From: Bacteroidales bacterium
Lineage (GTDB): Bacteria > Bacteroidota > Bacteroidia > Bacteroidales > UBA12077
Assembly (NCBI GenBank): GCA_028282585.1
Contig: JANQHR010000052.1
Location: 1 to 64,000, forward strand
Direction of reading: 5' to 3'
Length of the DNA: 64,000 bases
Shown in pieces: positions 5,985 to 30,601 of this stretch. Both the position numbers and the translations under genes were made by a program. The notes under the pieces are model-generated. The model was not told the origin of the DNA, made no database searches, and saw nothing but the letters and a program-made list of their open reading frames with translations. Within the stretch, counting starts at the first letter, position 1; each line of letters opens with the position of its first letter.

Positions 5985-6135
5985 GGTTGTTATCAGGTTT
6001 TATCTGCAATATTTTAATAAAGTTTGTAATAAGATTTATATAACCGATATACGTGCTGTAAATAAAAATACCACATTTATATATATAATTAGCACAAAAT
6101 CTGTGTATTTTTGATATATTTGTTATAATGACAAG
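5878..6135 (+). repeat. Copy 1 of a ~255-bp direct repeat (uvrA 3' end plus downstream region)
   Basis: Aligns to 7871-8124; the last 42 bp are identical. Confidence 0.92.
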
Positions 6136-6141
6136 TTGCAG
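6094..6141 (+). promoter_or_regulatory. Candidate array promoter and attI-like entry site
   Basis: TATTTTTG (6106) and TATATTTG (6115) match the Bacteroidota -7 element TAnnTTTG; G|TT follows at 6135, where the two repeat copies diverge. Confidence 0.55.
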
Positions 6142-6326
6142 TGCGTTCCCCGCATGTGCACTTACAGGATAGATGCAAAATTAAAAAATCTATCCTTCCA
6201 GACCTAACTAATTTCTGTTGCTAGCAGAAAAGCGGGTAGCCAAAATGAATTAAAAATGATAAATTTTGACAAACATAAACAACAGATAATCAATAATATT
6301 GTTTTACATAGCGTTAATTCTGACAA

Positions 6327-6974
6327 ATGATAACAATTCAAATAAAAAGCTTTTTTAAAAAAGTATCTAGTATAAACTTAAAAACAATTAAAATGAAACA
6401 AGAATTTAGTTTAGTAACGATTGTGTTAGCATTATTATTTTTTGTGTCTTGCAATAATAACAATGTTAAACAAGAAACGCAGAATGTTGAAACTACACCA
6501 ACAGAAACAATCTCGGAACAGGAAGTTTTGGAAGCTCAGAAAATTTGGGGAGAGGGAATTGTTCGCATAGGTAAAGTGTATACAGAGGAAGGTGATTATA
6601 AGACCGAAGCGAAAAACCATATTGCTGATTTATACGGTTATAATTTAGGGCCAGTATTATTTAAGCCAACACTAGCGGCAGATAAGCAGTTCCGAACAAC
6701 AAAAGAAGGGGCACTTTCTTATTTTGTAGGACACGATGATAATTTCCCAGAAGACCACGGTTTTGCAATAAAGCCCTGGAGTGCTGTAAGATGGGAAAGT
6801 ATCGGGATAAAAACAGAGGGGAACATGGCTATTGCTATGGGAAATTATTTTTTCACACCTGCCGAAGGAGGTGAAGATGTTAAAGTTGAATATACTTTTG
6901 CTTATACTAAAGACGATAAAGGAGTATTGCGCATAATTATGCATGGTTCACACCTTCCATATTCTCCAAAATAA
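6327..6974 (+). CDS. COG4337-like (iota-class carbonic anhydrase / NTF2-like fold) lipoprotein (likely start 6393)
   Basis: Lipobox FVSC; VLFKPT, GALSYFVG, GFAIKPW, KVEYTF; C-terminal MHGSHLPY, a variant of HHSSxPY. Confidence 0.7.
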   Translation: MITIQIKSFFKKVSSINLKTIKMKQEFSLVTIVLALLFFVSCNNNNVKQETQNVETTPTETISEQEVLEAQKIWGEGIVRIGKVYTEEGDYKTEAKNHIADLYGYNLGPVLFKPTLAADKQFRTTKEGALSYFVGHDDNFPEDHGFAIKPWSAVRWESIGIKTEGNMAIAMGNYFFTPAEGGEDVKVEYTFAYTKDDKGVLRIIMHGSHLPYSPK

Positions 6975-7055
6975 GTTAATATTGATTTTTAAATCTATAT
7001 GTAAATTTCGATTATGTATTAAATTATATTTTCAAGGTGAAAAAATAAACTTCAC

Positions 7056-7186
7056 CACAACACTTTGTATAAGTAATGGCAGAAGATGGGGTAAATATTA
7101 AGCTTTGTATCCTGTTCAAACTGCTACCCAGTTTAACAAGAAAGTACTACACAATCTGCCATTACTCATACAATTTGCCGTTGTGC
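7056..7186 (+). repeat. Intact attC-like hairpin
   Basis: CACAAC..TTGTATAAGTAATGGCAGA / TCTGCCATTACTCATACAA..GTTGTG. Confidence 0.85.
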
Positions 7187-7215
7187 ACCATGTCAAAAAC
7201 CAATAAATCAATAAA

Positions 7216-7779
7216 ATGAATATTGAAATAAGACCTTTGACAAAAGATTTAAAAGACGATTATTTGTTTTTCTTTGATAATATGATTTTCAAAGAAAATC
7301 CTGATTGGTCAATTTGTTATTGTTACGACTATCACTTCGTTGGAGATGTAGCAAAATGTACTCGTGAATCTAATCGTTCTTCGGTAATAAATCTTATCAA
7401 TGAAAATAAGCTGACAGGTTATTTGGTCTTTGAAAATGATAAACCCATCGGATGGTGTAATGCAAATAACAGATTAAATTACCAAAGATTACTAAAAGAC
7501 TATGATTTGATTGATAATCCTGATGATAAAGTTTGTTCAATTGTTTGTTTTTTAATACATCCCGATTATAGAAGACAAGGGATTGCTCAAAAGATTCTTG
7601 AAAAAATTATTACGGATTATTCAAATAAGGACTATGATTATATTGAAGCGTATCCGAAAAAAGGAGAATTATCGTGCGAGAGAAATTTCAAAGGGCCTTT
7701 GGAATTATATAAAAGACATGATTTCAAGATAAATAAAGAGTATGATGATTATTATGTAATGAGAAAAAAATTAAAATAA
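7216..7779 (+). CDS. GNAT family N-acetyltransferase
   Basis: CFLIHPDYRRQGIA motif A, IEAYP. Confidence 0.9.
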   Translation: MNIEIRPLTKDLKDDYLFFFDNMIFKENPDWSICYCYDYHFVGDVAKCTRESNRSSVINLINENKLTGYLVFENDKPIGWCNANNRLNYQRLLKDYDLIDNPDDKVCSIVCFLIHPDYRRQGIAQKILEKIITDYSNKDYDYIEAYPKKGELSCERNFKGPLELYKRHDFKINKEYDDYYVMRKKLK

Positions 7780-7783
7780 TTAC

Positions 7784-7870
7784 GGTGCACACATTTTGGA
7801 TATTTCATAGCAGGTATGTAACGGCATGACACTTCCATCCCCCGGTCATGTCGCCCTACAGTTGACAGGA
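7784..7870 (+). repeat. Truncated attC-like element
   Basis: GGTGCACAC is complementary to GTTGTGCACC at 7180; the element is cut off by the uvrA-tail duplicate. Confidence 0.55.
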
Positions 7871-8124
7871 GAGGAAAACAAGGTGGAAAAATTGTTTTCG
7901 AAAGCACTCCGGAAGAATTAAAAAAGTTAAAGAATCCGATACAAGATATTATTTGATTGAAAAATTAAGAAGCTAAGATTGCTATAAGATTTTATCTGCA
8001 ATATTTAATAAAATTCGTAATAAGATTTATATAACCGAAATATGTGATTTATATAAAAATATTTCACTGATAACTGTTTACTACAAAATCTGTGTATTTT
8101 TGATATATTTGTTATAATGACAAG
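7871..8124 (+). repeat. Copy 2 of the uvrA-tail / attI-like direct repeat (coding part decayed)
   Basis: GAGGAAAACAAGGTGGAAAAATTGTTTTCG...AAAATTAAGAAGCTAAG...TTGTTATAATGACAAG. Confidence 0.92.
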
Positions 8125-8276
8125 CCGTATGCAAGCTGAAGAGCAAGGCCTACCAACATTAGTAAACTAATTTAAAAAAAGAAAATTAAACATCGTGACT
8201 CTCCAACAAGTCGGTGCTGAATTGATAAAATGGTATGGTAAATGATTGAAAATTAATATGAACTGAATGAACGCCA

Positions 8277-8478
8277 GCATACAACAATAAATATACCCAA
8301 TACTACGTTCAGAGGGTTAGGCAACGCTTGTAGCACTTGGGTTATACCGCCAAATCGTATCGATTTGACTATTTGATTAAAGGAAAATTTACAGTAAAAT
8401 CGGCACTCTTTGGTTCATCGCAAATTTGGAAGTATCTTACCTTTGATTGCGGCACTTGGCATATTCGAGACGTTAGGC
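8277..8478 (+). repeat. Long degenerate attC-like element
   Basis: Starts GCATACAAC and ends GTTAGGC just before the next gene. Confidence 0.6.
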
Positions 8479-8497
8479 ATTATTAAAAAGTGTAACA

Positions 8498-9475
8498 TTG
8501 AATAATAGAATTTATAATATGAGAGCAATTGAAAAAATAGAAAATAAGGATTTTAATTTAACAGATGTTGAGATTATCGAATTATTAAGTATAGATGCTT
8601 ATACTAATGACTTTTATAGGTTGTTATCAGTATCTAATGAATTAACAAGGAATAAATTTAAGAATAAAGGTTATGTCTTTACTCAAGTAGGAATTAATGC
8701 AGCACCCTGTTCAGTTAATTGTCGATTTTGTTCATTGGGTGCCGACCATTATTCAGTAGACTCAAAGTGGGAGAAGGATGTAGATACATTAATTAAGGAA
8801 TTAAAAGTATTAAATGAATATCATTTTGATGACTTTTTCCTAATGACAACAGCAGATTATTCTATCGATAAATACTTGGAAGTATCAAAACAGATAAAGC
8901 CTCTACTAAAAGAGAATCAAAAATTCATAGCCAATATTGGTGATTTTGACATTGAGATAGCCAAACGCTTAAAGTCTGTTGGCTTTACTGGTGTTTATCA
9001 TATTAACAGATTACGAGAAGGTCAAGACACGTTAGTCACTACTGAACAAAGAGAAAAAAGTATAGCTTCTGCTCAAGCTGTAGGCTTAGAAATTTACTAT
9101 TGTATAGAACCCATTGGCCCAGAACATAGTTATGAAGAATTACTTGAAGAAATTAAACGCGCACGTGATTTGAAGATTTCAGTAATGGCTGTAATGCGCA
9201 GAACTCCAGTTGTTGGCACTCCATTGAACGAATTAGGGCAAATTACTGCAATAGAAATGACTAAAATTGCCGCAGTAACAAATATTGTTGTCAATCCATC
9301 ACGCTCGATGAATGTTCATGAGCCTACACAGATGTCATTGCTTGCAGGAGTAAATCAACTTTATGCAGAACTTGGAGCAAACCCAAGAGATTGTAATAGT
9401 GAAACAGAAAAAAGTCGTGGCTTCACCCCGCTTAAAGCATGGGAAATGTTAAGGGAAGCTGGCTATAACAAGTAA
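8498..9475 (+). CDS. Radical SAM protein, biotin synthase-like superfamily (likely start 8519)
   Basis: CSVNCRFC (CxxxCxxC), YCIEPIGPEH, GANPRD. Confidence 0.85.
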   Translation: MNNRIYNMRAIEKIENKDFNLTDVEIIELLSIDAYTNDFYRLLSVSNELTRNKFKNKGYVFTQVGINAAPCSVNCRFCSLGADHYSVDSKWEKDVDTLIKELKVLNEYHFDDFFLMTTADYSIDKYLEVSKQIKPLLKENQKFIANIGDFDIEIAKRLKSVGFTGVYHINRLREGQDTLVTTEQREKSIASAQAVGLEIYYCIEPIGPEHSYEELLEEIKRARDLKISVMAVMRRTPVVGTPLNELGQITAIEMTKIAAVTNIVVNPSRSMNVHEPTQMSLLAGVNQLYAELGANPRDCNSETEKSRGFTPLKAWEMLREAGYNK

Positions 9476-9478
9476 AAC

Positions 9479-9534
9479 AATGGCTAACATTTTGTAAAAG
9501 TAATGGCAGAAGATGGGGTAAATATTAAGGTTTG
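9479..9534 (+). repeat. Left half of an attC-like element, nearly identical to the 7056 element
   Basis: AATGGCTAAC, then 43/46 identity of 9489-9534 to 7062-7107. Confidence 0.85.
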
Positions 9535-9575
9535 CCAGAACAGTCGCGATCCCCTATAAATCATCCGAACAGAAC

Positions 9576-9616
9576 CGACCGCAAGGTCGTGAAAGTTCGA
9601 ATCTTTTCCAGGGTAC
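9576..9616 (+). pseudogene. 3' half of a tRNA (Leu-type, long variable arm)
   Basis: GACC-GCAA-GGTC variable arm, GAAAG-TTCGAAT-CTTTT T-arm, CCAGGGTA acceptor strand; 5' half absent. Confidence 0.65.
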
Positions 9617-9618
9617 AA

Positions 9619-9659
9619 AAAAAAACTCCCGACTGATTTAATTCGGTTGGGAGTTTTTT
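9619..9659. terminator. Bidirectional intrinsic terminator
   Basis: AAAAAACTCCCGACTGA...TCGGTTGGGAGTTTTTT. Confidence 0.75.
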
Positions 9660-9696
9660 ATTTATTCATTTTTTTAGAACAAACTGGATAATGCAT

Positions 9697-10707
9697 TTAA
9701 AAAATCTTTTTTTCTTTTAATATTTTCACCCGTTTCACCATTTTACTAAAATCCTTTTGGTATTGCCTATTCTTCTCAGTTTTACGACGATTTAAAAAGG
9801 CAAGTTCTTTTTTTAAGTGCAAATAGCTATCGTAGCGTTCCGGACTGATATTGCCTTTCTCTAATTCAGATTGCACTGCACAACCTGGCTCTCCTTCGTG
9901 CTGACAATCGTTGAATTTACAATACTGTGCAATTTCTGAAATATCTGTAAAAGTATTATCTAAAGCCTCATCCTCTGCCCACAGCTGAACTTCCCTTAAG
10001 CCGGGCGAATCAATAATATACCCCCCACTCTCCAGTTCAAACATAAACGAGGCAGATGTCGTATGTCGCCCTCTTTTATCTTTCTGTCTTATCTCGTTGG
10101 TTTTTTGCAGATCTTCTTTTAACAAACAATTTGTAAGCGTTGATTTACCAACACCCGAAGGTCCGATAAATACACCTGCTTTCCCATTTGATAAATAACT
10201 TTCAATTGCAGCAATACCTCTTCCATCCTCAACACTGGTTGTTAAAACATCAACACCGGGAGCAATGGTTTCGGCTTGATATTGAACAAACTCAGCTTCA
10301 TCGTTAAGGTCAGCTTTGTTTAATACAATTAGCGGAGTAGCACCACTATCCCAGGCAATGGCAGTTAATCTCTCCAGTAACCTGTCGGAGTAATTACGTC
10401 CACCATCTAAACCTAAAACAATCACTACATAATCAATATTAGCTGCTAATACTTGCTCTTCGGTAGTAACACCTGCTGTTTTCCTGCTTATTTGAGTTTT
10501 TCTTTCCAGCACTTTTTCTATCTGAACCAAATTCTCGTACTCGTTAAATTCCACCCAATCGCCAACACAAGGAAATTCGCTTTTATTTTGTATTGTCTGA
10601 AAATATTTTCCTTTCAGCTTAGCTTGTTTAATATCTGTTCCAATTTGTATTTTGTAGGTATCATATTGTTTTTCTACAATGCAACCTTTTTTATTATTTG
10701 TATACAT
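9697..10707 (-). CDS. rsgA: Ribosome small subunit-dependent GTPase A (accessory paralog type)
   Basis: Circularly permuted GTPase: NKAD, GPSGVGKST, GRHTT, DSPG; Zn site CKFNDCQHEGEPGC. Confidence 0.92.
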   Translation of the reverse strand: MYTNNKKGCIVEKQYDTYKIQIGTDIKQAKLKGKYFQTIQNKSEFPCVGDWVEFNEYENLVQIEKVLERKTQISRKTAGVTTEEQVLAANIDYVVIVLGLDGGRNYSDRLLERLTAIAWDSGATPLIVLNKADLNDEAEFVQYQAETIAPGVDVLTTSVEDGRGIAAIESYLSNGKAGVFIGPSGVGKSTLTNCLLKEDLQKTNEIRQKDKRGRHTTSASFMFELESGGYIIDSPGLREVQLWAEDEALDNTFTDISEIAQYCKFNDCQHEGEPGCAVQSELEKGNISPERYDSYLHLKKELAFLNRRKTEKNRQYQKDFSKMVKRVKILKEKKIF

Positions 10708-11122
10708 CTTCTCCTCCTTTCTCCATACTTATTTTATGTAAAGTCGAAATCATTGTTTTTGATGGAAATGGTAACGACATCAATGGTTCTGCTGCCATTG
10801 TAAGTAATAGCAACTCGTTATCATCAGCTGCAATCCGATTTAGCTTGATGGTATGGCACTTGGTGCATCGATGAATGATCGACCATTCTTTATTTTGTTG
10901 AACGTAAATGCTTATTGGTTTCATTATTCCCCTGCAACTCGCTCGTCGGTCGCCGGGTATTATGTCCACATGAATGCTACATAAGCAATGAGGACAGTGA
11001 TTTCTTTGTTTCCCACCAAACTCTACAGGAGGTACAGCCTTTCCACAAGAGGCACAGATAAATGACTCCATAGGATTTTCATGTATTATTTTATTACGTG
11101 ACATTTTTTTTGCGTTAAGCAC
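10694..11122 (-). CDS. RNHCP domain protein
   Basis: FICASCG, QRNHCPHCLCSIHVDIIPGDR, HRCTKC. Confidence 0.92.
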   Translation of the reverse strand: MLNAKKMSRNKIIHENPMESFICASCGKAVPPVEFGGKQRNHCPHCLCSIHVDIIPGDRRASCRGIMKPISIYVQQNKEWSIIHRCTKCHTIKLNRIAADDNELLLLTMAAEPLMSLPFPSKTMISTLHKISMEKGGEDVYK

Positions 11123-11247
11123 AATTACTAATTGAGTTTAGCAATTTAGCCAATATAAACACTAAGAATATTTATATAGAAATAACTCTGGCAAGAATTT
11201 GCCTGAGTACAAATGGAATAATCAAAGTCTGTTACAACAATGATTAT

Positions 11248-11280
11248 TTACTTAACACGAACCAGAATAGTCTTAATCAT
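11248..11280 (-). CDS. Putative leader peptide MIKTILVRVK
   Basis: 10-codon uORF between the TATATTTG promoter and the RNHCP gene; ends in R-V-K (+X+). Confidence 0.5.
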   Translation of the reverse strand: MIKTILVRVK

Positions 11281-11298
11281 CAAATAATTTTACGACCG

Positions 11299-11306
11299 CA
11301 AATATA
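11299..11306 (-). promoter_or_regulatory. Bacteroidota sigma-A -7 element
   Basis: TATATTTG on the minus strand upstream of the uORF-RNHCP-rsgA unit. Confidence 0.55.
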
Positions 11307-11457
11307 CATTTTTTTTGATAAATCTCCTTTTTTACAAAACTTTTGAAGATTATTATAGAAAACCTAATTAAATTCGTGACTGGAAAGTATTTTATCTCTA
11401 GTGTTTTATAAAAATAGAAATTGTAATCGCAAAAGAAGAGATAGTTAAAAGATAGAG

Positions 11458-11643
11458 ATGGAAGCATATAGGGAATTTATGGAAAGATATATAACTTTGA
11501 CAAGCAATAATTGGATGACAATTCAACAAGAATTTACTCGAAAAGAAATTTCAAAAAATGCTTCACAGAAAGAATGTGTTGATGCTGAAAGTTTATAGAA
11601 AGAGAAACTCGGAACGAGAACATTCGGATTGAATAAAAATTAA
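11458..11643 (+). pseudogene. GIY-YIG nuclease-like C-terminal remnant
   Basis: ...AESL*KEKLGTRTFGLNKN* with an in-frame TAG; 5' part missing; followed by an attC-like site. Confidence 0.55.
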
Positions 11644-11653
11644 AAAAATACGT

Positions 11654-11765
11654 GTGGTAACAAAGTGTATAAAACATGCCAAGTGCAGTACAAACCTGAA
11701 ACGTATATGCCCGCTACTACCGTCTCCGAAGACTGCCACGTTTCATATCGCTAATTGTTGGGTGT
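11654..11765 (+). repeat. attC-like hairpin
   Basis: GTGGTAAC-AAAGTGTATAAAACATG / CACGTTTCATATC..GTTGGGTGT. Confidence 0.7.
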
Positions 11766-11841: not shown

Positions 11842-12696
11842 GTGAAAAGGAAAGAACTTAAAATAGTTAAAGCACTGACGAATGTGAATGACAAAAAACG
11901 TATTGTCTTAAATGATATAGGTTGGACTAGCCGTGTTTACATTATAGATGATGGCGAATATGTTTTTAAATTTTTAAAAAATAAAAAATATCAAGAGGAA
12001 CTTGAACACGAAATAAATATTTTGAAGCTAATAAAAAATCACAAATTCAACATAAATATTCCCTTAATCGGTTGGGTTGGAAAAGATAACGCATACATAG
12101 GTTTCAAAGGAGTGACAGGAAAGTCAATGACAACAGAAATAATAAATGAATTAAATGAAGAACAAAAGAGAAAAATAGGCGCACAAATCGGAATCTTCAT
12201 AAAAAAGCTTCATGCCATAGACTATCATGGTAAAAGCCCAAACAGCGAAAGTAATGTAATTGAATGGTTTCAGGAATCGTTTTGCAAAAAAAAGCGCACA
12301 TTGAAAAAATACTTTAATAAAAATGAACTTGCATCCATTGAAAAACTTTTAACAAGCTTGCCGGAAAAGTCTGCAAAATATGGGATAGAAGAAGTTTTTT
12401 GCCACGGCGATTTAGGCTACAATAATATCATACTATCCGACAATCTTGAAGTCGGGATAATTGACTTTGGCGATGCAGGCAATCTTGACAAGTCGTATGA
12501 CTTTATTGGTTTAGAAGATGATGTTATACTTGATGCGGCAATATTAGCATATGGTGGCGATAATGTTTTAAGGGAAAAAGTTGCAATAAGGCGGCAGTTA
12601 TTACCACTTATGGAAATGTTATTTTTGATTGACAGGAATGAAAAGGTAGAAATTGAAAAGTGTGCACGTAAAATGCGCGTTAATTTAAAAAACTGA
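11842..12696 (+). CDS. Aminoglycoside phosphotransferase (APH)-family kinase
   Basis: YVFKF, HGDLGYNN (Brenner motif), IIDFGDA. Confidence 0.88.
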   Translation: MKRKELKIVKALTNVNDKKRIVLNDIGWTSRVYIIDDGEYVFKFLKNKKYQEELEHEINILKLIKNHKFNINIPLIGWVGKDNAYIGFKGVTGKSMTTEIINELNEEQKRKIGAQIGIFIKKLHAIDYHGKSPNSESNVIEWFQESFCKKKRTLKKYFNKNELASIEKLLTSLPEKSAKYGIEEVFCHGDLGYNNIILSDNLEVGIIDFGDAGNLDKSYDFIGLEDDVILDAAILAYGGDNVLREKVAIRRQLLPLMEMLFLIDRNEKVEIEKCARKMRVNLKN

Positions 12697-12716
12697 CAAA
12701 GTAGACAAAACAAACT

Positions 12717-12816
12717 GCACTCAATATGTGTAATCCATAAAGGTTTCAGAGGTTTTCGAGCGTATTTATCCACTATAAATTTGGTTAGTAACTTGACACG
12801 CTTAAAGCTCTCAATA
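12717..12816 (+). repeat. Truncated attC-like element of the same subfamily as 22006
   Basis: Shares CATAA.GGTTTCAG.GGTTTTCGAGCGT...AACTTGA...GCTCTC with 22016-22110. Confidence 0.7.
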
Positions 12817-12894
12817 GTTTGTTTGTCATATATTTAACGTTTTTTATAGAATATACAAATTGAGAATATAAACACAGTGACTTAATAAATATAA

Positions 12895-13809: not shown

Positions 13810-13989
13810 TCAACTTATAAAGAATGATAACTGAAACAAGATACTTAAGTGAAGTTGTTAAAACACAGGCAAACAATGATAAATTATTCATATACGATAT
13901 AAATTACTTTGGATTACTCATAGAGAAAGAAGGTAACCAAATTTTAGTATAAAGAAATAAAGATTTACTAAGAAGATATGAACTAAAAT

Positions 13990-22238: not shown

Positions 22239-24092
22239 ATGAAAGTCTATCAAGAAAATATAAAAAAATATAATGCCAAAACATTAAAGTTAAAAAAGGT
22301 ATTAAATAGAATATCATTACTTAGGCTTGCTATTTTTTTTATTTCTAGTATCATTATTATATACTCCCTTAGTTCTAATTTAATAACTCCTATTCTGATT
22401 GTTTTCCCACTATCCGTATTATGTTTTGGTGTTGCAATCAAACACTATAACAAAACAGCTTTCCAAAAAAAGCATATTACATTCCTGAAAGGTATAAATG
22501 AATCCGAAATTCTAAGAGAAAAATGTAACCTTGAAGAATTTGATACCGGACATAAATTTATCAATCAAAATCACCCATACACATCTGATTTAGATATTTT
22601 CGGTCAACATTCCATTTTTCAATTAGTTAACAGAACAACTACAGAGTCAGGTATGATACGCTTATCTGAATGGCTATCAGAACCTGCACCTAATTTTGAA
22701 ATTCATGACAGACAAAAAGCTATAAAAGAATTATCCAATAAATTGGAATGGAGGCAAGATTTTCAGGCGTCTGGCATGCACTTTCAAAATAAAAAAAGTG
22801 ATTATTTTAAATTGTTAGATTGGGTAGAAGCGCCTGTTGTTTTATTAAAATATCGACGAATATATATAGCAGCTGCAATAATCCTTTCGGTTCTATCTTT
22901 GCTTGGCTTATTTTTATCAATAATTAACATAGTTTTATTAAGCAGGTATATTTATTTTCTTTCCTTTATTTCTGTTTTATTTGTTAATTACTTGGTTTTA
23001 AGAAAAGTAAAACCACTTGCGGTGGATATCGTTGAAACCTCAACAAAAAATCTTAACACTTTAAAAGGTTATAGGACACTTATTTATAAAATTGAAAGCG
23101 AACGTTTCAAGTCGCAAAAATTAAACCACTTACAATCACTACTGATAAAAGGTATGCAATCAGCATACAATGAAATTAATAAGCTATGCAGGTTATTGGA
23201 TTACTCACATCAAAAACCTATAAAAAAGGATCCATTAAGTGGAAATCAATTTTATCCTATATTAAATAGTTTTCTACTATTGGATATTTATTTGATACTT
23301 GGAACAGAAAAGTGGAAATCAAAAAATAAAACGTTTTTAAAATCCTGGACTGAAGCAATTAGTGAGTTTGAAGTAATTAATTGTTTTGCAGGTTTTTGCT
23401 ATGCAAACCCATCCTACTCATTTCCGGAGATTACAGAAAAGAATAACTACCTACATTTTGAGTCGTTAGGGCATCCTTTAATAAATTCTAATAATCGTAT
23501 TTGTAATAATTTTCACTCAGAAGGACAAGGTGATGTTGTTATGATTACCGGTTCTAATATGGCAGGGAAAAGCACTTTTTTAAGATCCGTAGGCGTAAAC
23601 CTTGTATTGGCTTTAGCCGGTGCACCTTGTTGTGCAAAATATGGGCAGGTTTCGAACCTGAAATTATATACAAGTATGAGAACCCAGGATAATTTGAAAG
23701 AAGGAATTTCCTCTTTTTATGCAGAATTAAGTAGAATTGAAAAGATGCTGAAACTAATGGAAAGCAATCAAAACATTTTTTTTCTTTTGGACGAGATGTT
23801 TAAAGGCACAAACTCAGAAGATAGACATAAGGGAGGCTTTTCATTGATTAATCAAATAAGTAAGCTCGAAACGTCAGGAATTATTGCAACACATGATATT
23901 GAGCTTGCTAAGCTATCGGAAAATAAGATGTTGGTTACAAATTATAGTTTCAATAGTGAAATTAAAAATGATTCCATAATTTTCAGCTATAAACTCCATT
24001 CAGGTATATGTAATGATTTTAATGCGAGTGCATTAATGAAAAAAAGTGGAATTGAAATTATATCTGATATTTCAAAAAGTGCAACCAAATAA
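22239..24092 (+). CDS. Membrane-anchored MutS-related ATPase (MutS domain V only)
   Basis: TM segments, ITGSNMAGKSTFLR, SSFYAEL, LLDEMFKGTNS, ATHD; no mismatch-binding domain. Confidence 0.9.
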   Translation: MKVYQENIKKYNAKTLKLKKVLNRISLLRLAIFFISSIIIIYSLSSNLITPILIVFPLSVLCFGVAIKHYNKTAFQKKHITFLKGINESEILREKCNLEEFDTGHKFINQNHPYTSDLDIFGQHSIFQLVNRTTTESGMIRLSEWLSEPAPNFEIHDRQKAIKELSNKLEWRQDFQASGMHFQNKKSDYFKLLDWVEAPVVLLKYRRIYIAAAIILSVLSLLGLFLSIINIVLLSRYIYFLSFISVLFVNYLVLRKVKPLAVDIVETSTKNLNTLKGYRTLIYKIESERFKSQKLNHLQSLLIKGMQSAYNEINKLCRLLDYSHQKPIKKDPLSGNQFYPILNSFLLLDIYLILGTEKWKSKNKTFLKSWTEAISEFEVINCFAGFCYANPSYSFPEITEKNNYLHFESLGHPLINSNNRICNNFHSEGQGDVVMITGSNMAGKSTFLRSVGVNLVLALAGAPCCAKYGQVSNLKLYTSMRTQDNLKEGISSFYAELSRIEKMLKLMESNQNIFFLLDEMFKGTNSEDRHKGGFSLINQISKLETSGIIATHDIELAKLSENKMLVTNYSFNSEIKNDSIIFSYKLHSGICNDFNASALMKKSGIEIISDISKSATK

Positions 24093-24095
24093 AAA

Positions 24096-24205
24096 TACGC
24101 CATATACATGTGTAAAAATAATAGCCCGTCCAATAGTAAATTCAAAGATTTTAGCCCATGGCAATTTTCCTGTACCTTGACAAATTCGGCTGTTATTCTT
24201 ATAAT
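24096..24205 (+). repeat. Degenerate attC-like element
   Basis: TGTAAAAATAATAGCC / GGCTGTTATTCTTATA inverted repeat directly after the gene. Confidence 0.5.
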
Positions 24206-24256: not shown

Positions 24257-24898
24257 ATGTTCTATATAAATTGGCTATTGACTATAATTGGCCCTATAAT
24301 TGTTTATTTCATTGAGCGGTTAATTAGAAAAAAGAATAACTTAAGAAAAATATTCGCTATTACCTCAATTTCGTTTATCCTACTTTTTGTAATATTTAAT
24401 ATCTCCGACACTTACTTTAAAGTTTCTGCAGCTAACGATTTACTATTTTCAATGACTTATTTGGGTATTGTATTTATATTTTGGACATCACTTCGAATTA
24501 AAAATGTCGTTCTTAAAGTTCCCGTAATTATAACTCTGGCAATATTAATATTATCAGTCGCATTACTAGGAATTACAGGGCTGTTCGGCATAACTTACAA
24601 TGAATATTATGCATCTAAGTTCGAATATGACAAAACATATAATACCTATGAAGGATACTCGATACAATTGACCAAATTAGGTCATGCTTTGGAACCAGAT
24701 GGAATACAAATTCATGTATTTAAAGACATTGAAATTATTCCGATTAAGAAGAAAGTTTACGAAGAAAAAGACTATAGCTTTTATGGAGATTTGGAAGATG
24801 TCTTCTTTTCAGTAAGTGATAATATTATAAAATTAGAATATCGAAATGATAAAGGCGAATATATATTTGAAAAGGAAATAATGATAAACAGCAACTAA
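24257..24898 (+). CDS. Hypothetical membrane protein
   Basis: Four TM segments then a soluble tail; stop codon lies inside ACTAAC. Confidence 0.65.
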   Translation: MFYINWLLTIIGPIIVYFIERLIRKKNNLRKIFAITSISFILLFVIFNISDTYFKVSAANDLLFSMTYLGIVFIFWTSLRIKNVVLKVPVIITLAILILSVALLGITGLFGITYNEYYASKFEYDKTYNTYEGYSIQLTKLGHALEPDGIQIHVFKDIEIIPIKKKVYEEKDYSFYGDLEDVFFSVSDNIIKLEYRNDKGEYIFEKEIMINSN

Positions 24899-24912
24899 CA
24901 TCAGTTGTGGTT
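24891..24912 (+). repeat. Collapsed attC-like site
   Basis: GCAACTAAC-ATCA-GTTGTGGTT. Confidence 0.55.
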
Positions 24913-24926
24913 AATACAAAACAGAG

Positions 24927-25538
24927 ATGCTTAAGGAAACATTTTTAAAATTGATGAGTAAGTATACAAACCAAGAAGATTATATTTTTTATTGTTGGGA
25001 TGAGATTTTTAAAAGTTATTCATCAGAATCAAGGCATTATCATAACCTGATTCATATTAACAATATGATATCTGAATTGGACCATGTAATATCTGAAGTA
25101 AAAGAGAAAGATTCGTTGCTATTTTCAATTTATTACCATGATATTATCTACAACACATCTAATTCTGATAATGAATATAAGAGTGCAATGTTATTTAAGA
25201 AAAGAATTGCCCGAACAGATTTTCAATATATTGAAAAATGTATGAAACAAATTGAACAAACTAGTGAACATAAATTGTCGGAGGATAATGATATAAATAT
25301 TCTTTTGGATTTAGACCTTTCAATATTAGGCAAGAATAGGTTAGATTACCAAGAATATTGTCAAAACATAAGAAAAGAATATAATATGTATTCTGACCTT
25401 GAGTATAGAAATGGAAGGAAAAAAGTACTGATCAGGTTACTGGATTTATCTTCAATTTATAAAACAGATTATTTTAGTTCAAAGTATGAGAAGAATGCAA
25501 GAATAAACCTTGCTCTTGAACTTAAATCTTTAGACTAA
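24927..25538 (+). CDS. HD-superfamily phosphohydrolase (COG4339-like)
   Basis: RHYHNLIH, YHDIIY, LDLDLSILG, IRKEY. Confidence 0.88.
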   Translation: MLKETFLKLMSKYTNQEDYIFYCWDEIFKSYSSESRHYHNLIHINNMISELDHVISEVKEKDSLLFSIYYHDIIYNTSNSDNEYKSAMLFKKRIARTDFQYIEKCMKQIEQTSEHKLSEDNDINILLDLDLSILGKNRLDYQEYCQNIRKEYNMYSDLEYRNGRKKVLIRLLDLSSIYKTDYFSSKYEKNARINLALELKSLD

Positions 25539-25602
25539 TGGGGTTTTGGAATAAAATACTCAGAAAAGTAAAGCCTAACAGGAAATATATAATATTAAAT
25601 TT

Positions 25603-26805
25603 GTGAAAAAGATAAATTACTACACAACGTTCAATTTAAAATATAAAAGTATGATTTCGAAAAATGAAATTCTTAAAGTCCTTTTATACTTCACGCTATT
25701 AACTACTGGATGTGAAACTACAAAAAACAGCCATAGTGATAACTCCATACAAGCTGTTATTAAAGAGTTTGAATCAGGAATTGAAAAGGATATTAAAGAC
25801 GATGGTATTAATGGAAGTATTTCAACTGCCATTGTAAGGAAAAATGAAATAATCTGGTCTAAAGCATTTGGAATTGCAGATATTGAGAAAAATATTCCTG
25901 CTGATACAAATACTATTTATCGGACAGCATCAATTTCTAAGCCTTTTACAGCATTTCTTATGATGCAACTCTACCAAAAAGGCATTATTGATATAGACGA
26001 ACCTATAGAGAAATATTTACCCGAGATTAGAAATATAAAAGGATATTCAGAATCCACTAAAATTACCTTCCGGCAAGTCGCCAGCCATACGTCAGGACTT
26101 CAGCGAGAACCTGATATGAAAGGGGCTGACGAAGGTCCTATTGAAGAATGGGAAGAAAAGATTCTTGAAGCAATACCGTTAACATCATTTAAAGCAAAGC
26201 CCGGAGAGCATCACAGCTATTCCAATATTGGATATGGTATAATGGGTTTAGCATTATCCAGGGCTGCATCTAAATCCTTTTTGAAACTGGTTAAGGATGA
26301 AATTTTCATACCACTTGGAATGGATAACAGTTTTTTTATAGTTCCGGACAGCTTATATCCTAAGTTAGCTAAAGGGATTGATGGAGGACCCATTGGGAAA
26401 TTAAGTTTTGAAAGACCTTTACGGGGACATAGTGGCAGAGGATATAAAGTACCAAACGGTGGTATCTATTCAACTCCCAATGATTTAGGTAAATTTATGA
26501 TTTGCAACATGGGATTTTGTGACCTGCTTGAAAAGGAAAATCTTGAATTAATGCAGACGGCTACTAAACCAATCGAAGAAACATGGAATAGAGGTTTGGG
26601 ATTTACACTTTATCAAGATGATATTTTAAACACAGTAGAACATGATGGTTTTATTTCAGGCTATACAGCCTATTTTGTTTTTGATAAGAAACATCAATAC
26701 GGTGTAATTATTATGCGTAACTATAATTTTGGATCAACTGATCATTTAGAATTAACTGCAAAAGTTTTACTGCGAAAATTAATTAATGCTGAAAACAAAA
26801 ACTGA
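25603..26805 (+). CDS. Serine hydrolase (beta-lactamase family) lipoprotein (likely start 25651)
   Basis: SISK (SxxK), YSN, HDG; lipobox-like TTGC. Confidence 0.9.
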   Translation: MKKINYYTTFNLKYKSMISKNEILKVLLYFTLLTTGCETTKNSHSDNSIQAVIKEFESGIEKDIKDDGINGSISTAIVRKNEIIWSKAFGIADIEKNIPADTNTIYRTASISKPFTAFLMMQLYQKGIIDIDEPIEKYLPEIRNIKGYSESTKITFRQVASHTSGLQREPDMKGADEGPIEEWEEKILEAIPLTSFKAKPGEHHSYSNIGYGIMGLALSRAASKSFLKLVKDEIFIPLGMDNSFFIVPDSLYPKLAKGIDGGPIGKLSFERPLRGHSGRGYKVPNGGIYSTPNDLGKFMICNMGFCDLLEKENLELMQTATKPIEETWNRGLGFTLYQDDILNTVEHDGFISGYTAYFVFDKKHQYGVIIMRNYNFGSTDHLELTAKVLLRKLINAENKN

Positions 26806-26860
26806 ATACAACAAAGCGTATATGTTCATTTCGGGGAACCATATAGACAAGGTCATTATG
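26804..26860 (+). repeat. Internally deleted attC-like element
   Basis: GAATACAAC-AAAGCGTATATG...CCATATAGAC. Confidence 0.45.
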
Positions 26861-26905
26861 CTGTATGTTAAAAGAACCTATTAATCTGCATTAAAGAAAA
26901 GCATT

Positions 26906-28429
26906 ATGAAAAAAGTGAACTTCGCTATTTTATCAATTATAATTTCTGGATTACTATTTGGGTGTAATAAAAATCCAACAGCCAATCAATACAAAACTCA
27001 ATATAAAGTTAATTATGTAACAATAGATGGTTTGTGGAAATGCACTTCTGAAACTAACTTAAAACTTAAAGATTTAACAATAGAACCAGTTATCTATATA
27101 TCAGGAGAAATCGCAAATAAATTATCAGTGGAAGGATGTTTTACTTGGGATGGGCAATTTCGTGATTATTGGTATCTTGAAAAAATAGTTTACAATGACA
27201 AAACCAATGAAATCAAAATTCAGGATAAAGAGGGTAATATGTATATTGGAGTATTTGACAAAAAAAAACAAAGAATTAATGGAATGGTATATTCACAGGA
27301 TGAAGATAAGTTAGTTCCTGAAGATAAACTCGATTTCATTAGAGCTTCTGACCTAAATTTAGAACGTTTATTTATACCCCGAAAACCTCATGAAGATGGG
27401 AGTATTCAATATAGTTATCAGATACCCGATCACAAAAATGACGAACTGCAAACATCTTCAATATTTAATTATTGTAACGACACTTCTGCACTATACAATT
27501 TAATGAATGAGATTATCAGACAAGAATTTGGTCGACTTGAATCTTTTTTAATAATGAAAGATCAAAAACTGATTCTTGAAGAATATTTCTTTAATTATTC
27601 GAGTTCTGACATGCATAATATTTTTTCATGCACAAAGAGTATTGTTTCTTTAGCAGCCGGAGTTGCTTTCAAAAAACTAGAAAATTTAAATACTGAAAGA
27701 TCTATTTTTGATATTTTTCCAGAATTCGATTCTTTAAAAAACAATGCAAACCAAGACATCACTTTAAAGCATATACTAACAATGACTGCAGGTTTTGATG
27801 AAGGCAATGAGTACAAAAATTTAAAACCAAATGAAGTTGTAGCCAACATTCTTAAATCACCTTTAATATCAAAACCTGGAGAAAAATTTAGCTACAACAG
27901 TGAATGCCCTTACCTCTTGGGAGGGTTTATTTATGAAATGTCTGGGAAAAACATAGAAGAATTTACCAAAGAAAACATATTTAATCCATTGGGAATTAAA
28001 AATTACAATTGGAAGAGTTTAAATAATAATCCTGATTGTGCAAGTAATCTGTATATGCAATCGCGAGATATGATAAAAATCGGATCACTGACTTTAAACA
28101 ATGGAAAATGGAAAGAACAACAGATTGTTCCCGCAGAATGGATAAGCGAATCTATCCAGCCTCAGATTGCTGAAAGTGATTTTTTTGATTACGGTTACCA
28201 GTGGTGGTGTAGGTCGAAATCAAATAAGCCCTGGTGGAAAGAACCCTCGGAAAATTCAAAAGAACATGATATGTTTCTTGCGTTGGGTTATGGCGGACAG
28301 TACATTTTTATCGTTAAGGACCTGAATCTTATAATATCAATGACTTCATCAGATTATAATGAAGGAAATGGAATGGCTTTTAAGAAAATACCACTGGTTA
28401 TTGAAAAAATTGTTCCATTATTTGAATAA
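26906..28429 (+). CDS. Serine hydrolase (NylB/class C-like) lipoprotein with an N-terminal extension
   Basis: Lipobox LFGC, SCTK, YNS, YGYQWW, LGYGGQ. Confidence 0.88.
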   Translation: MKKVNFAILSIIISGLLFGCNKNPTANQYKTQYKVNYVTIDGLWKCTSETNLKLKDLTIEPVIYISGEIANKLSVEGCFTWDGQFRDYWYLEKIVYNDKTNEIKIQDKEGNMYIGVFDKKKQRINGMVYSQDEDKLVPEDKLDFIRASDLNLERLFIPRKPHEDGSIQYSYQIPDHKNDELQTSSIFNYCNDTSALYNLMNEIIRQEFGRLESFLIMKDQKLILEEYFFNYSSSDMHNIFSCTKSIVSLAAGVAFKKLENLNTERSIFDIFPEFDSLKNNANQDITLKHILTMTAGFDEGNEYKNLKPNEVVANILKSPLISKPGEKFSYNSECPYLLGGFIYEMSGKNIEEFTKENIFNPLGIKNYNWKSLNNNPDCASNLYMQSRDMIKIGSLTLNNGKWKEQQIVPAEWISESIQPQIAESDFFDYGYQWWCRSKSNKPWWKEPSENSKEHDMFLALGYGGQYIFIVKDLNLIISMTSSDYNEGNGMAFKKIPLVIEKIVPLFE

Positions 28430-28434
28430 AACTT

Positions 28435-28558
28435 TGCCTAAAATTTTATAAGTAATAGCTGGGATATTTTGAATATTGCGGTTTGCTGTCCTTTCAAGCT
28501 AGTTGGTTTGAAAGAAAAGAATCCATAAGCTGCCACTTCTCATATAATTTACTTTGGC
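28435..28558 (+). repeat. Degenerate attC-like hairpin
   Basis: TGCCTAAA..TTATAAGTAATAGC / GCCACTTCTCATATA. Confidence 0.55.
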
Positions 28559-28899
28559 TTATTGTTCAAAGTATGCAAGAAGTAACTAGAACTATAGCTA
28601 ACAGCAAATTGATAAAAATAGAAGTTTCGAATAAAAAGTATAAATTGCAAAATATAAAACAACTTGGTAATTTGTTTTTTATGGTTATTCAGGATTTAAG
28701 ATTACGAGTTCATTCATTGAAAATATGTTCTGGTAGGCAGATGATTTGATGATTGAATTAGCGATTAAGTTCAATAGTAAATTAACTGATATTCAAGGAT
28801 TTAACATAATAGGTGATTTTATGATTGAAGTAATGATTACACATCCATAGAGGCGACCAATAATAAAAGCAATAATAATAATGGTAAAAAAAACAGAAT

Positions 28900-29871
28900 A
28901 TGAATAGAATTTTAATAGTATTTGTAATTATGAACATATTAATGTTCTTAAATTCGTGTAGTCAAGAAGAAAATGGGCCTGCTGACGAAACAAAAGAATG
29001 GATTAGAAATTCTGCAAATCCTGTTTTCCACGATTACATTTCAGAAGAAAATTATGAAGTTGCTAGTGATGCACACGTCTTCTTTGACGAATATGATTCC
29101 TTAAAAATGATATATACTGGTGGTGCAAACGGGAAAGCTTCAATAAAATTAGCCATTGGCAGTTCATGGGATAATTGGACAAAAGGTAGCTCATTGCTTT
29201 ACCAGCCAGGTCCATCAGGACTGGACATTTATAAAGAAACTGGTTTTTACAGAAAATCTTCGAATGGGAAACATCAAATTTATTATATCGGATACGATGA
29301 TGAAAATACTTATGAATCACAAATATACCTTGCCGAGGCAGATGCTTTAAGAGGGCCTTATACGCAGTTTGAACAGCCTTTGATTTCCAGGGGAATAATA
29401 GCAGGAAAAAATGTTTATTGTATGACCAGTCCCAGTGTGATTGAACATCATGGCTTATTATACATGACATTTATAGGTTGGAATGATTCACCGGAAAATG
29501 TTACGAATGTATGGATGATAGGTGCAATATCATCTGATGAAGGGCATAACTGGTCAGATTTTCAAATAGTTGATGCCAGAATTATGATGGAAGGGCAAGT
29601 AACAAAAGCCCCTGACAATACCTTTATTGCAGTTAGAACAGGTGATTATGAAAACACTGAAGCAATATATTATGCAACTTCAACTCATCCATTCGGACCC
29701 TGGACAGAAGAGGAAGAACCAATTTTGATTCAGGCAGGGGCTCCATATGAAAAGGATGAATGCATCGCGCCGCAAATTACTATTGATCCTCTAACAAATA
29801 AACAGTATTTATTTTACACCGGGGCCGATCATCAAGTTGGATGGTGGATTATGCTTGCTGAAAAGAAATAA
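28900..29871 (+). CDS. Five-bladed beta-propeller glycosidase-like lipoprotein
   Basis: Lipobox LNSC, NPV, repeated GP(W/Y)T, SPSV and APQI blade motifs. Confidence 0.7.
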   Translation: MNRILIVFVIMNILMFLNSCSQEENGPADETKEWIRNSANPVFHDYISEENYEVASDAHVFFDEYDSLKMIYTGGANGKASIKLAIGSSWDNWTKGSSLLYQPGPSGLDIYKETGFYRKSSNGKHQIYYIGYDDENTYESQIYLAEADALRGPYTQFEQPLISRGIIAGKNVYCMTSPSVIEHHGLLYMTFIGWNDSPENVTNVWMIGAISSDEGHNWSDFQIVDARIMMEGQVTKAPDNTFIAVRTGDYENTEAIYYATSTHPFGPWTEEEEPILIQAGAPYEKDECIAPQITIDPLTNKQYLFYTGADHQVGWWIMLAEKK

Positions 29872-29971
29872 ATAGCGGTTTCGCGCTAAGTATTGTAATA
29901 ATATTTGCTTTGCAACGGATAATGATTATGCATAGAGTGAAAACTTCCAAACTTTACTTAAATGTGTACCG

Positions 29972-30601
29972 TTGCGATTTGGCAACAACACGATTTATAG
30001 AATGAATTATAAAAGCGCTGCTGAAAGAATAATTGCCCTGAGAAATACAGACATAGAGTTTAGGGAAAGACTTGTTCAAAATAAACGAATTGGAGAAGGC
30101 TACAATGAAGAAATGAAAAAATTGCACAACAGAAATGCAAGAATATTAAATCACATAATTGACACCATCGGTTATCCAACCATTGACAAAGTAGGTAAAG
30201 AAGCCAGCGAAGCAGCGTGGATGATCATACAACATTCAATCGAACAGCCTGATTTTATGAAAAAGTGTGTAAAACTATTGGAAAGGGCAGTTAGCGAAAA
30301 TAAAGCAGAAGCAAGAAGTTTAGCTTACTTGACAGACCGAATAGCGACATTGGAAGGAAAACCACAACTTTATGGAACTCAATTTGATTGGGACGAAAAC
30401 AAAAAATTAAGTCCAAAACTCTTTGATAACTTAGCCAAAGTAAATCAAAGAAGAAAATCTATCGGGCTTAAAACACTTGAAGAACAAACCGCAATTATAA
30501 GAAGACAAGCTGAAAATGAAAGTCAATTTCCACCAACAGACTTTGTAAAAAGAAAACAGGAGATTGACGAATGGAGAAAAAAAGTAGGTTGGATAAAATA
30601 A
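29972..30601 (+). CDS. DUF6624-like protein (likely start 30002)
   Basis: AAWMIIQH, AYLTDR...GKPQLYGTQF, VNQRRKSIGL. Confidence 0.8.
   Translation: MRFGNNTIYRMNYKSAAERIIALRNTDIEFRERLVQNKRIGEGYNEEMKKLHNRNARILNHIIDTIGYPTIDKVGKEASEAAWMIIQHSIEQPDFMKKCVKLLERAVSENKAEARSLAYLTDRIATLEGKPQLYGTQFDWDENKKLSPKLFDNLAKVNQRRKSIGLKTLEEQTAIIRRQAENESQFPPTDFVKRKQEIDEWRKKVGWIK

Follow-up and report, generated by a model that had tools for sequence, protein, structure and literature searches.

The 64,000-nt stretch at the start of contig JANQHR010000052.1 (Bacteroidales bacterium, assembly GCA_028282585.1; hereafter, the window) carries, between uvrA (3186–5984) and a convergent gene for a 148-aa protein (30700–31146), an array of mostly co-directional genes interspersed with imperfect hairpins. 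An initial annotation, made from the sequence alone, ascribed this array to an integron-like cassette capture system. Is it indeed a cassette array and, if so, how was it built and what became of its integrase? Our results indicate that the region 5985–30699 is probably a secondary cassette array, integrase-less and largely immobilised, of an integron-like system of Bacteroidota.

The array is an insert specific to the source genome

We compared the uvrA neighbourhoods of 13 genomes of the same genus and one genome of another family. In 12 of the 13 same-genus loci and in the single locus from the other family, uvrA is followed after 35–115 bp by the ortholog of 30700–31146, beyond which the gene order is that of the window from 30.7 kb on. 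Additionally, a hairpin at 30642–30683 is the counterpart of a terminator-like hairpin situated between uvrA and the next gene in the relatives. Since the relatives have uvrA abutting this ortholog, with the terminator-like hairpin kept, the region from 5985 to about 30641 is an insertion specific to the source genome (24.7 kb when counted to 30699). An identical gene order in relatives, which would speak against cassette capture, was thus not found, because they lack the whole insert. The single exception is G010, which has a 274-aa tyrosine recombinase (P0001) on the reverse strand immediately past uvrA.

The insert contains 22 plus-strand open reading frames (ORFs) of at least 88 aa, spanning 6327–30601, and only three on the minus strand, in agreement with the ca. 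20 unrelated genes on one strand reported at the outset. Their Pfam families are mutually unrelated, and 9 of the 25 island ORFs scanned show no Pfam family. The cargo includes two GNAT acetyltransferases, a radical-SAM protein, an APH-family kinase, an AraC/GyrI (Cass2-like) regulator, an amine oxidase, a PAF-AH-like hydrolase, a CAAX protease, DUF4240, MutS-domain and DUF6624 proteins, two beta-lactamase-family hydrolases, a GH43-like protein and several ORFs without a family. No immunity family appeared among the Pfam matches of these 25 ORFs, a weak negative given the nine family-less ones. Two of the ORFs, of 215 aa (6327–6974) and 138 aa (in the cassette 14174–14715), had no homolog in the 55 other genomes of the family. 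The absence of an integrase extends to the entire 132-kb contig, which contains no tyrosine recombinase. The G+C content of the co-directional array genes (27–39 %) is that of the whole window, so that the region is not set apart by composition.

The hairpins belong to a family of folded sites

A motif-plus-stem scan of all fetched loci identified elements of 122–127 nt in many genomes. Fourteen of them, one from the window, were taken as seeds; they align over 144 columns with conserved AACA, GTATA, a GC-rich stem, TCATAC and CGTT, and RNAalifold found 16 pairs, 13 of them with compensatory changes. A covariance model built from these seeds, designated R1, had 99 matches in 445 kb of fetched loci. 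In these matches 93.0 % of the pair cells are standard, versus 63.7 % after shuffling (none of 500 shuffles reached the observed value) and 24–38 % with the partners slid; these figures are flattered by the fitting of the 99-site alignment to R1, but the margin is nonetheless large. The inner boxes are conserved in sequence (GTATAAA/TCATAC) and the site length is nearly fixed, at about 135 nt. The consensus fold has no extrahelical bases; it has, in symmetric positions, two conserved A·C mismatches on the gene-sense strand (79/98 with 79/99, and 96/99 with 93/99), which are G·T on the other strand. The bottom strand folds modestly better in 62 of 98 sites (mean, −1.17 kcal/mol; Wilcoxon p = 6e-6, for sites that are not independent). 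No Rfam family matched the R1 elements.

With filters off, a scan of the 64-kb window with R1 gave seven matches with E<1e-3; all are on the plus strand and in the insert, and each lies after a gene. On neither strand of the remaining 39 kb was there a match at E<0.1, and four further sites of the insert are weak (Table 1). Three of the four hairpins first described as the clearest (7053–7188, 14593–14715 and 11653–11765) are significant under R1, whereas the fourth (22007–22143) is among the weak ones. Plain inverted-repeat and minimum free energy screens yielded only three convincing hairpins, 7056–7186, 14605–14700 and 12704–12828 (z of −5.3, −3.2 and −2.5 against shuffles). A generic scan for AAC..GTT plus stems was too blunt, with 7055–7186 as its sole match in the insert and equal matches outside it, and a strict motif scan of the genome (10 matches, versus 5 in the shuffled genome) was of use for seed choice alone.

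The source genome contains 24 R1 matches (E≤0.01), distributed over 10 contigs. Where a contig has several matches, they share a single strand, which on C33, C70, C85 and C165 is also that of every ORF; R1 elements are therefore clustered with a common polarity and are not dispersed. A BLAST search of the genome with the window hairpins showed that they are not high-copy. More widely, 48 of the 56 family genomes (E≤1e-4) and 99 of 151 genomes sampled within the order (E≤1e-6) carry R1 sites, which are also present in Flavobacteriales (Algibacter onchidii, Flavobacterium aciduliphilum) and in one metagenome-assembled genome (MAG) of Calditrichales. In three complete genomes (G008, G207 and G169) the main array starts beside a single gene for a long-form integrase, a type described below. 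That of G008 holds all 14 of its R1 matches in 91 kb. In G207 it comprises 75 of at least 89 matches (a lower bound, as 150 candidates were scored) over 275 kb of one strand (C1:3,682,246–3,956,917), or about 7 % of the 4.0-Mb genome, and the integrase gene lies at 774–1796, on the array strand, just across the start of the circular record. The main array of G169 extends over ca. 170 kb, with R1 matches from the order-wide scan left uncounted.

Cassettes are units cut at G/TT

For consecutive sites within arrays, we compared the 6 nt after the GTT of one site, in its right outer box (R′), with the 6 nt before the AAC of the next, in its left outer box (R″). In arrays from other genomes, R′ of site n and R″ of site n+1 were complementary at all six positions in 45 of 65 pairs (mean, 4.85), with control means of 2.2 within the same site, 2.48 for the reverse comparison and 2.03 for random pairs. 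Since R′(n) complements R″(n+1), the cassettes are units cut at G/TT (the slash marks the cut), as in integrons. Genomes G002 and G024 show 94.7 % identity through ..ACAAGTT, beyond which their cassettes differ, and each first cassette opens with 10 nt that exactly match the reverse complement of its own R″ (GTTACCAGCC versus GGCTGGTAAC; GTTGTATGCC versus GGCATACAAC); the second cassette of G002 recurs in G024 behind extra sequence. Metagenome loci with integrases 68–69 % identical to P0001 also have the platform in common and a different first cassette. The R′/R″ complementarity in related arrays, together with the different cassettes behind the common platform of G002 and G024, bears out the proposal of a cassette capture system.

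In the window, the match between cassette start and R″ survives in four cassettes (7/9, 8/9, 8/9 and 8/8 exact), those near the platforms and the one at 20037–20886. The start of cassette 1, TTGCAGTG.., is complementary to its own R″, CACCACAAC, at seven of nine positions; that of cassette 2, TTGTGCACC, has its reverse complement at 7784 (GGTGCACAC) with one mismatch; and that of the radical-SAM cassette, TTAGGCAT, is complementary to R″ ATGGCTAAC at eight of nine. Box TCGCTAAC matches the reverse complement of the cassette start TTAGCGA exactly; for this length, the expectation is about 0.03 exact matches in 7 kb.

We also considered that the ~135-nt elements could be selfish or regulatory repeats, either similar to repetitive extragenic palindromes (REPs) or miniature inverted-repeat transposable elements (MITEs) or acting as RNA 3′ stem-loops or terminators, the array then being a chance run of co-oriented accessory genes. 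Their position after stop codons, the number of copies in G207 and the 14 copies that lie outside its main array would fit such repeats. In G207 and G008, however, 75 of at least 89 and 14 of 14 copies, respectively, lie in one stretch, (almost) on one strand and beside an integrase; the main array of the third complete genome also adjoins an integrase, and dispersed REP or MITE copies are not what was found. The 6-nt flank matches the next copy and not its own partner in those 45 of 65 pairs, which neither transposition nor an RNA function predicts; moreover, the two A·C mismatches are conserved on the mRNA-sense strand and Rfam holds no match. We regard this as the least probable explanation of all.

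An integrase remnant and attI-like sites head the array

The array is headed by the remnant of a short-form integrase. Positions 5991–6135 match G010:C125:709–853 (69 %, E 9.7e-5), which comprises the start of the G010 integrase ORF and its upstream region through the ..ACAAG site. A tblastn comparison of residues 1–14 of P0001 with the remnant gave 43 % identity (6/14), not significant by itself. Together with a related full-length integrase on contig C169, this remnant bears out the early suggestion that the recombinase has been lost or acts in trans.

Downstream of the remnant lies an attI-like site, whose end ..ACAAG/TT is found ca. 100 nt upstream of intact integrases in relatives and at six other loci of relatives; the latter are orphan platforms without a full integrase, one with an integrase-start remnant visible, and the platform appears to have been propagated as a unit without its integrase. 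In G010 the recombinase is followed by ..TTGTTATAGCAACAAG/TTAGCAAAC.. and a plus-strand gene, the downstream sequence of which opens with the exact reverse complement of GTTAGCAAAC. Copy 1 of the attI-like site contains a box similar to the promoter consensus TAnnTTTG, a candidate promoter. The cassettes are now probably transcribed from the attI-borne promoter and from their own.

A direct repeat of 258 bp (5878–6135 and 7871–8124, 86 % identity), which includes 105 bp of the uvrA 3′ end, contains a second copy of the platform; copy 1 of the attI-like site is followed by TT and copy 2 by CC. Such a repeat, and the tyrosine recombinase directly beside the uvrA stop in G010, could also indicate an ordinary integrative island, or two in tandem, inserted at the uvrA 3′ end by double-strand att × att recombination, with the hairpins as terminators or passengers. 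The repeat, however, also holds the same integrase deletion and the attI-like site, and therefore corresponds to a duplicated platform and not to an att core. There is no third copy at the right end, the hairpins form a covarying family tied to arrays and integrases, and the junctions in relatives lie at ..ACAAG/TT with a cassette-specific continuation; an ordinary island is thus unlikely. A possible third platform, at ORF 11273–11467 and ..GACAAG around 11500, was dropped, as the ORF has no likeness to an integrase.

Two loci of G016, L064 (C177) and L065 (C59), contain orphan attI-like sites inside arrays, with ca. 45 nt in common with those of the window. Each is preceded by an R1 site, and L064 contains a pair separated by 2.1 kb, reminiscent of the two copies in the window.

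The array of the window has decayed

The AAC start and GTT end that had been attributed to the hairpins hold in 74 of 78 sites from other genomes and in 9 of 13 on the other contigs of the source genome, but both are intact in only two of the seven significant window sites. Four defective sites with aligned cores read AAT or AAA and lack the G before TT; in the fifth (24111–24203) the R boxes are unaligned. Additionally, one site is halved by the opposite-strand rsgA/RNHCP module and another has shrunk to an R″ box (20879–20886). These results indicate that the array is a relic, decayed and largely immobilised; with the integrase deleted, sites broken and C:G pairs lost, its cassettes are now fixed cargo.

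The double core defect occurs in only two sites of other genomes, L065:3551–3686 and L064:13583–13716, both preceding integrase-less platforms in G016. The C and G lost together in integrase-less arrays are partners of one base pair at the crossover, not random positions.

Several observations weigh against a cassette array at this locus. The R′/R″ signature is absent between consecutive significant window sites (0, 1, 3 and 1 of 6), and in five of the seven sites AAC has lost its C and GTT its G. Seven significant and four weak sites are few for about 24 genes: sites do follow genes, as first described, but they do not separate all of them, and two four-gene runs (15156–19901 and 24257–28429) contain none. 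The call of the remnant depends on the 145-nt DNA match and the six of 14 residues given above. G010, the sole relative with an intact short integrase at uvrA, has no R1 match at E≤1e-4, and its one visible cassette carries a different, non-R1 stem. Furthermore, cassette insertion does not account for the duplication of 105 bp of uvrA, and tblastn of the cassette proteins against all fetched loci did not find the cassettes in other arrays. On balance, the evidence supports the integron-like reading as largely right, with the underlying description confirmed in part, and we consider the window a decayed member of a widespread and only partly described integron-like system.

From the organization of related arrays, a plausible history can be proposed. 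A 274-aa Xer-like tyrosine recombinase would formerly have been encoded just past uvrA, reading away from the array, and would have put circular cassettes into the attI-like site (..ACAAG/TT). Its partner would have been the folded attC-like site of ca. 135 nt, R″(..YAAC)-GTATAAA..stem..TCATAC-R′(GTT..), presumably as a single (bottom) strand, with the crossover between G and TT. Later, the integrase gene would have been deleted to ca. 16 codons, the platform with 105 bp of uvrA duplicated or imported a second time, one site broken by the rsgA/RNHCP module, and the crossover C:G pair lost from most sites; the order of these events is tentative. The 376-aa integrase of C169 could act in trans on the two intact sites.

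Integrases of the short and long forms

P0001 contains only SAM-like and catalytic domains. Its alignment with archaeal XerA structures is continuous from end to end, and its best PDB and NCBIfam matches are to XerA (115 bits, and 205 bits for a cut-off of 220). Its alignment with VchIntIA (2A3V) is in two pieces, ca. 43 residues short at the IntI insertion (breaks at query 169/205 and chain 171/250), and its match to TIGR02249 (184.5 bits in two stretches; cut-off, 265) is below the IntI cut-off, just as its scores are below every Xer equivalog cut-off. Short-form integrases of 272–280 aa, reading away from the array, were found in L164, L166, L083, L094 and L172. No short-form relative more than 50 % identical occurred, beyond G010's own, in 56 genomes of the family and 401 of the order; the contig scan for the integrase returned mostly long forms, at up to 52 % identity.

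The long form (345–400 aa) has ca. 100 extra N-terminal residues without a Pfam match and reads into the array (L093, L090, L213/214, L215, L219, L081). An attI-like ..AAC(T or A)AG/TT lies ca. 100–170 nt past its stop in L093 (A. onchidii), L090, G003, G023, G008 and L081 (F. aciduliphilum). Some homologs are named "site-specific tyrosine recombinase/integron integrase" by NCBI. In the source genome, the long form is encoded on C169 (2004–3134, 376 aa, 41 % identical to P0001), with ..CTAACAACTAG/TTATGC.. after the stop; the protein matches the IntI model below cut-off (117 + 101 bits). This gene and its attI-like site seem to head the main array of the genome, and the contig breaks off in repeat soon after. 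Other Xer-like genes lie on C16, C41, C121 and C145.

Contig C169 also carries a direct repeat of ~100 nt (G000:C169:1–100 and 1604–1705) around a single ORF downstream of the long-form integrase; it does not match R1 and could represent a further class of cassette sites, and the contig begins inside it. In G169, 10 copies, nearly identical in length, of a smaller tyrosine recombinase (300-aa frames) lie at C1:1,867,016–1,983,115 on the strand opposite to the array, with two more elsewhere; the three copies checked begin ca. 106 nt from an R1 site. IS1111-attC elements and group IIC-attC introns target sites in integrons, and by analogy the small recombinase looks like an element targeting R1 sites.

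Comparison with integrons, Xer recombinases and rAID-1

As in integrons, a tyrosine recombinase adjoins an attI-like site, and cassettes are co-oriented, mostly single-gene, and end in an imperfect palindrome with outer boxes ..YAAC and GTTR.. and inner boxes. The crossover is at G/TT and the first bases of the cassette complement its own R″; in relatives, attI stands beside the integrase with cassettes joined at G/TT, a junction seen in the window as copy 1 then TT and copy 2 then CC. Array size is that of chromosomal super-integrons (275 kb here), the cargo families are typical of cassettes, including the Cass2-like protein, and the short-form layout, with the integrase reading away from the array, is the classical one. 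In contrast, the integrase here lacks the IntI-specific insertion; R1 sites have A·C (top) or G·T (bottom) positions instead of extrahelical bases, inner boxes fixed in sequence and a near-constant length (~135 nt); and the common long-form integrase is directed into the array and has the attI-like site ca. 100–170 nt past its stop. With R1 in place of the standard attC model, seven sites without a recombinase on a 132-kb contig place the locus among attC-site clusters that have no integron integrase (CALINs). The system thus works like an integron, and the window like a CALIN, but by IntI domain and extrahelical bases it is no member.

The short form resembles XerA, XerC and XerD in domain make-up and length; unlike Xer recombinases, with their single dif site, the integrases here adjoin variable cassette arrays, and they score below the Xer equivalog cut-offs.

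The closest described system is rAID-1 (recombinase-associated acquired interbacterial defence) of Bacteroidales, and since it was already called integron-like by Ross et al. (10.1101/471110), the novelty first claimed must be reduced. It consists of a XerD-like recombinase 5′ of co-directional short immunity genes and occurs in 226 of 423 genomes, according to the parts available of 10.1101/471110 and 10.1101/2025.05.03.651265. An rAID-1 recombinase is defined by at least 44 % identity to the B. fragilis NCTC 9343 reference, and the downstream genes, two or more and co-directional, by a G+C content of 41 % or less. The paper of Ross et al., as far as available, describes a conserved motif immediately 3′ of the stop codon of the recombinase, repeated intergenic motifs "reminiscent of integrons" and a size of ">16 kb, up to 31 genes"; the motif logos of its figure S4 may show the R1 motif. 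The long-form architecture fits this description (recombinase 5′, motif after the stop, over half of Bacteroidales genomes in the portion available), and the long-form system is likely rAID-1, as compared by description. In contrast, arrays here reach 91–275 kb, R1 sites extend to Flavobacteriales and a Calditrichales MAG, and the part of 10.1101/471110 available contains no folded-site anatomy, crossover point or cassette-circle signature.

The array itself could also be a regular rAID-1 cluster (a bank of immunity genes against type VI toxins) with its recombinase outside the window, given the same phylum, the co-oriented short genes, the repeated intergenic motifs and the XerD-like recombinase family in the genome (10.1101/471110, from the part available). 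Against this, its platform had a short, divergent recombinase, now deleted, that read away from the array instead of lying 5′ and co-directional; the cargo comprises GNAT, APH-family, AraC/GyrI, serine hydrolase and oxidase genes with no Pfam immunity family; and the array is at uvrA, not beside the C169 recombinase. We consider a regular rAID-1 cluster very unlikely, and keep to a secondary array of the integron-like system with the short-form layout.

The accessible parts of the IntegronFinder papers do not mention CALINs in Bacteroidetes; they list only In0 elements, earlier, and one complete integron in Salinibacter ruber. According to the part available of Smyshlyaev et al., the insertion is not fully conserved in an "integron-like" subgroup. 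The literature covered, with few subscription journals or supplements, describes neither the site fold nor the crossover nor the short divergent platform; two reports on CALINs and beta-lactamases (PMC13674405, PMC13616975) have, in the parts available, no bearing on Bacteroidota arrays.

Integrons are held to be rare in Bacteroidota, and the R1 family occurs in 99 of 151 sampled genomes of one order, in arrays of up to 275 kb. A broader proposal, taken as a whole, appears to us evenly poised between right and wrong: that this is a second major integron lineage, in Bacteroidota and at least one Calditrichota MAG, with Xer-like integrases without the IntI domain, folded sites of ca. 135 nt, strand choice by two A·C (top)/G·T (bottom) positions, two platform layouts (short form reading away; long form reading in, equal to rAID-1), arrays of up to 275 kb, a role as a general gene-capture device and not as an immunity bank alone, and arrays retired by loss of the crossover C:G pair. 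If R1 elements are genuine single-strand recombination sites served by Xer-like enzymes, integron-style capture would be possible without the IntI domain, the cassettes of a phylum dominant in the environment and the gut would have been undercounted, and rAID-1 clusters would acquire a mechanism open to testing, with a site anatomy, a crossover point and a strand rule. The window itself is a fossil array whose cargo (acetyltransferases, APH-family kinase, beta-lactamase-family serine hydrolases, regulators) is now ordinary chromosomal content.

Features of the insert

The features of the insert are listed in Table 1. The reading of 8125–8472 as a site is weak, because R1 has no match there at E<10. 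In the radical-SAM cassette, 9486–9534 is 94 % identical to 7059–7107. The weak site 12714–12844 is 72–77 % identical to 21995–22089 and to R1 matches on C70 and C85, and the weak site 22007–22143 is 77 % identical to 12724–12796 and 77–79 % to R1-matching stretches on the same two contigs. No R1 match was found on the minus strand within 9535–11652. In this module, the rsgA-like GTPase gene is an extra, divergent copy, 37 % identical to that on C123, and overlaps the RNHCP-domain gene by 14 nt; the pair (9697–11122) is inverted within the array.

Table 1. Features of the region between uvrA and the gene at 30700–31146, in window coordinates; bits and E-values are those of model R1
Feature	Coordinates	Strand	Content and evidence
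Short-form (274-aa type) integrase remnant	5991–6039	−	ca. 16 N-terminal codons; ATA at start codon position; rest deleted to uvrA stop
attI-like site, copy 1	6089–6135	+	47 nt, ends ..TATATTTGTTATAATGACAAG; 96 % identical to 8078–8124; junction after 6135 (G/TT)
Cassette 1	6136–7180	+	215-aa ORF 6327–6974 (no Pfam family); intact site 7053–7188, 100.8 bits (seed)
Cassette 2	7181–7869	+	GNAT acetyltransferase 7216–7779 (Pfam); truncated site from 7784
Platform copy 2	7870–8124	+	uvrA 3′ fragment 7870–7975, integrase remnant, attI-like copy 2 8078–8124; junction G/CC, not G/TT
ORF-less stretch	8125–8472	+	core-like GTTAGGC at 8316–8322 and 8472–8478; R″-like GCATACAAC near 8275
Radical-SAM cassette	8473–9534	+	ORF 8498–9475 (Pfam); 5′ half of site only (9480–9534); weak match 9480–9573, 11.5 bits
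Opposite-strand module	9535–11652	−	replaces 3′ half of preceding site (Pfam, inverted repeat)
Module parts	9617–9662; 9697–10707; 10694–11122; 11273–11467	−	terminator-like hairpin; rsgA-like GTPase; RNHCP; ORF
attC-like site	11653–11765	+	28.7 bits, E 4.2e-5; AAC and GTT both kept
APH-family phosphotransferase and weak site	11842–12844	+	gene 11842–12696 (Pfam); site 12714–12844, 15.3 bits, E 0.12
AraC-HTH/GyrI-like (Cass2-like) regulator and site	12895–14123	+	gene 12895–13809 (PF06445, PF14526); site 13992–14123, 27.4 bits; core AAA/TTT
138-aa ORF (no family) and site	14174–14715	+	site 14593–14715, 44.4 bits; core AAT, no G before TT
97-aa ORF and possible mini-site	14804–15155	+	41 nt, 15115–15155; 7.7 bits, E 10; motif by eye; weak
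Amine oxidase, PAF-AH-like hydrolase, GNAT, CAAX/Rce1-like protease, then site	15156–20044	+	Pfam; site 19911–20044, 31.1 bits; core defective
269-aa ORF and lone R″ box	20037–20886	+	ORF 20076–20885; of the site only R″ left (TCGCTAAC, 20879–20886)
DUF4240 protein and weak site	20919–22143	+	gene 20919–22001 (Pfam); site 22007–22143, 11.4 bits, E 1.1
MutS-domain protein and site	22239–24203	+	gene 22239–24092 (Pfam); site 24111–24203, 34.1 bits, model positions 14–119 (stem only, R boxes unaligned)
213-aa and 203-aa proteins, two beta-lactamase-family serine hydrolases, then site	24257–28561	+	Pfam; site 28434–28561, 37.4 bits; core defective
GH43-like, DUF6624 and right junction	28900–30641	+	genes 28900–29871 and 29972–30601 (Pfam)

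Further observations

Downstream of the array, two B12-binding radical-SAM genes and a flexirubin-type tyrosine ammonia-lyase gene (FlxA) lie at 49317–50657, 54032–55306 and 58606–60147, which suggests a pigment or lipid gene cluster; FlxA, which belongs to flexirubin synthesis, exceeds its cut-off with 831 bits, and the window also encodes a PorE/CHU_0125-like protein, both of which mark the genome as one of Bacteroidota.

In A. onchidii, a Flavo-1 RNA, an Rfam motif of unknown function, lies at L093:9520–9598 (minus strand; 47.7 bits, over the gathering score), ca. 60 nt upstream of the long-form integrase. A DUF805 RNA motif just below its gathering score (47.8 versus 51.1 bits) occurs in an array context at L076:3465–3533 (minus strand). 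Finally, in L163–L167, from marine metagenome contigs, tandem hairpin-like repeats of ca. 70 nt (..GGGATTCTTTTGA..GGGATCATCCGC..) lie 200 nt past the stop of the short-form integrase, on the side away from the array.

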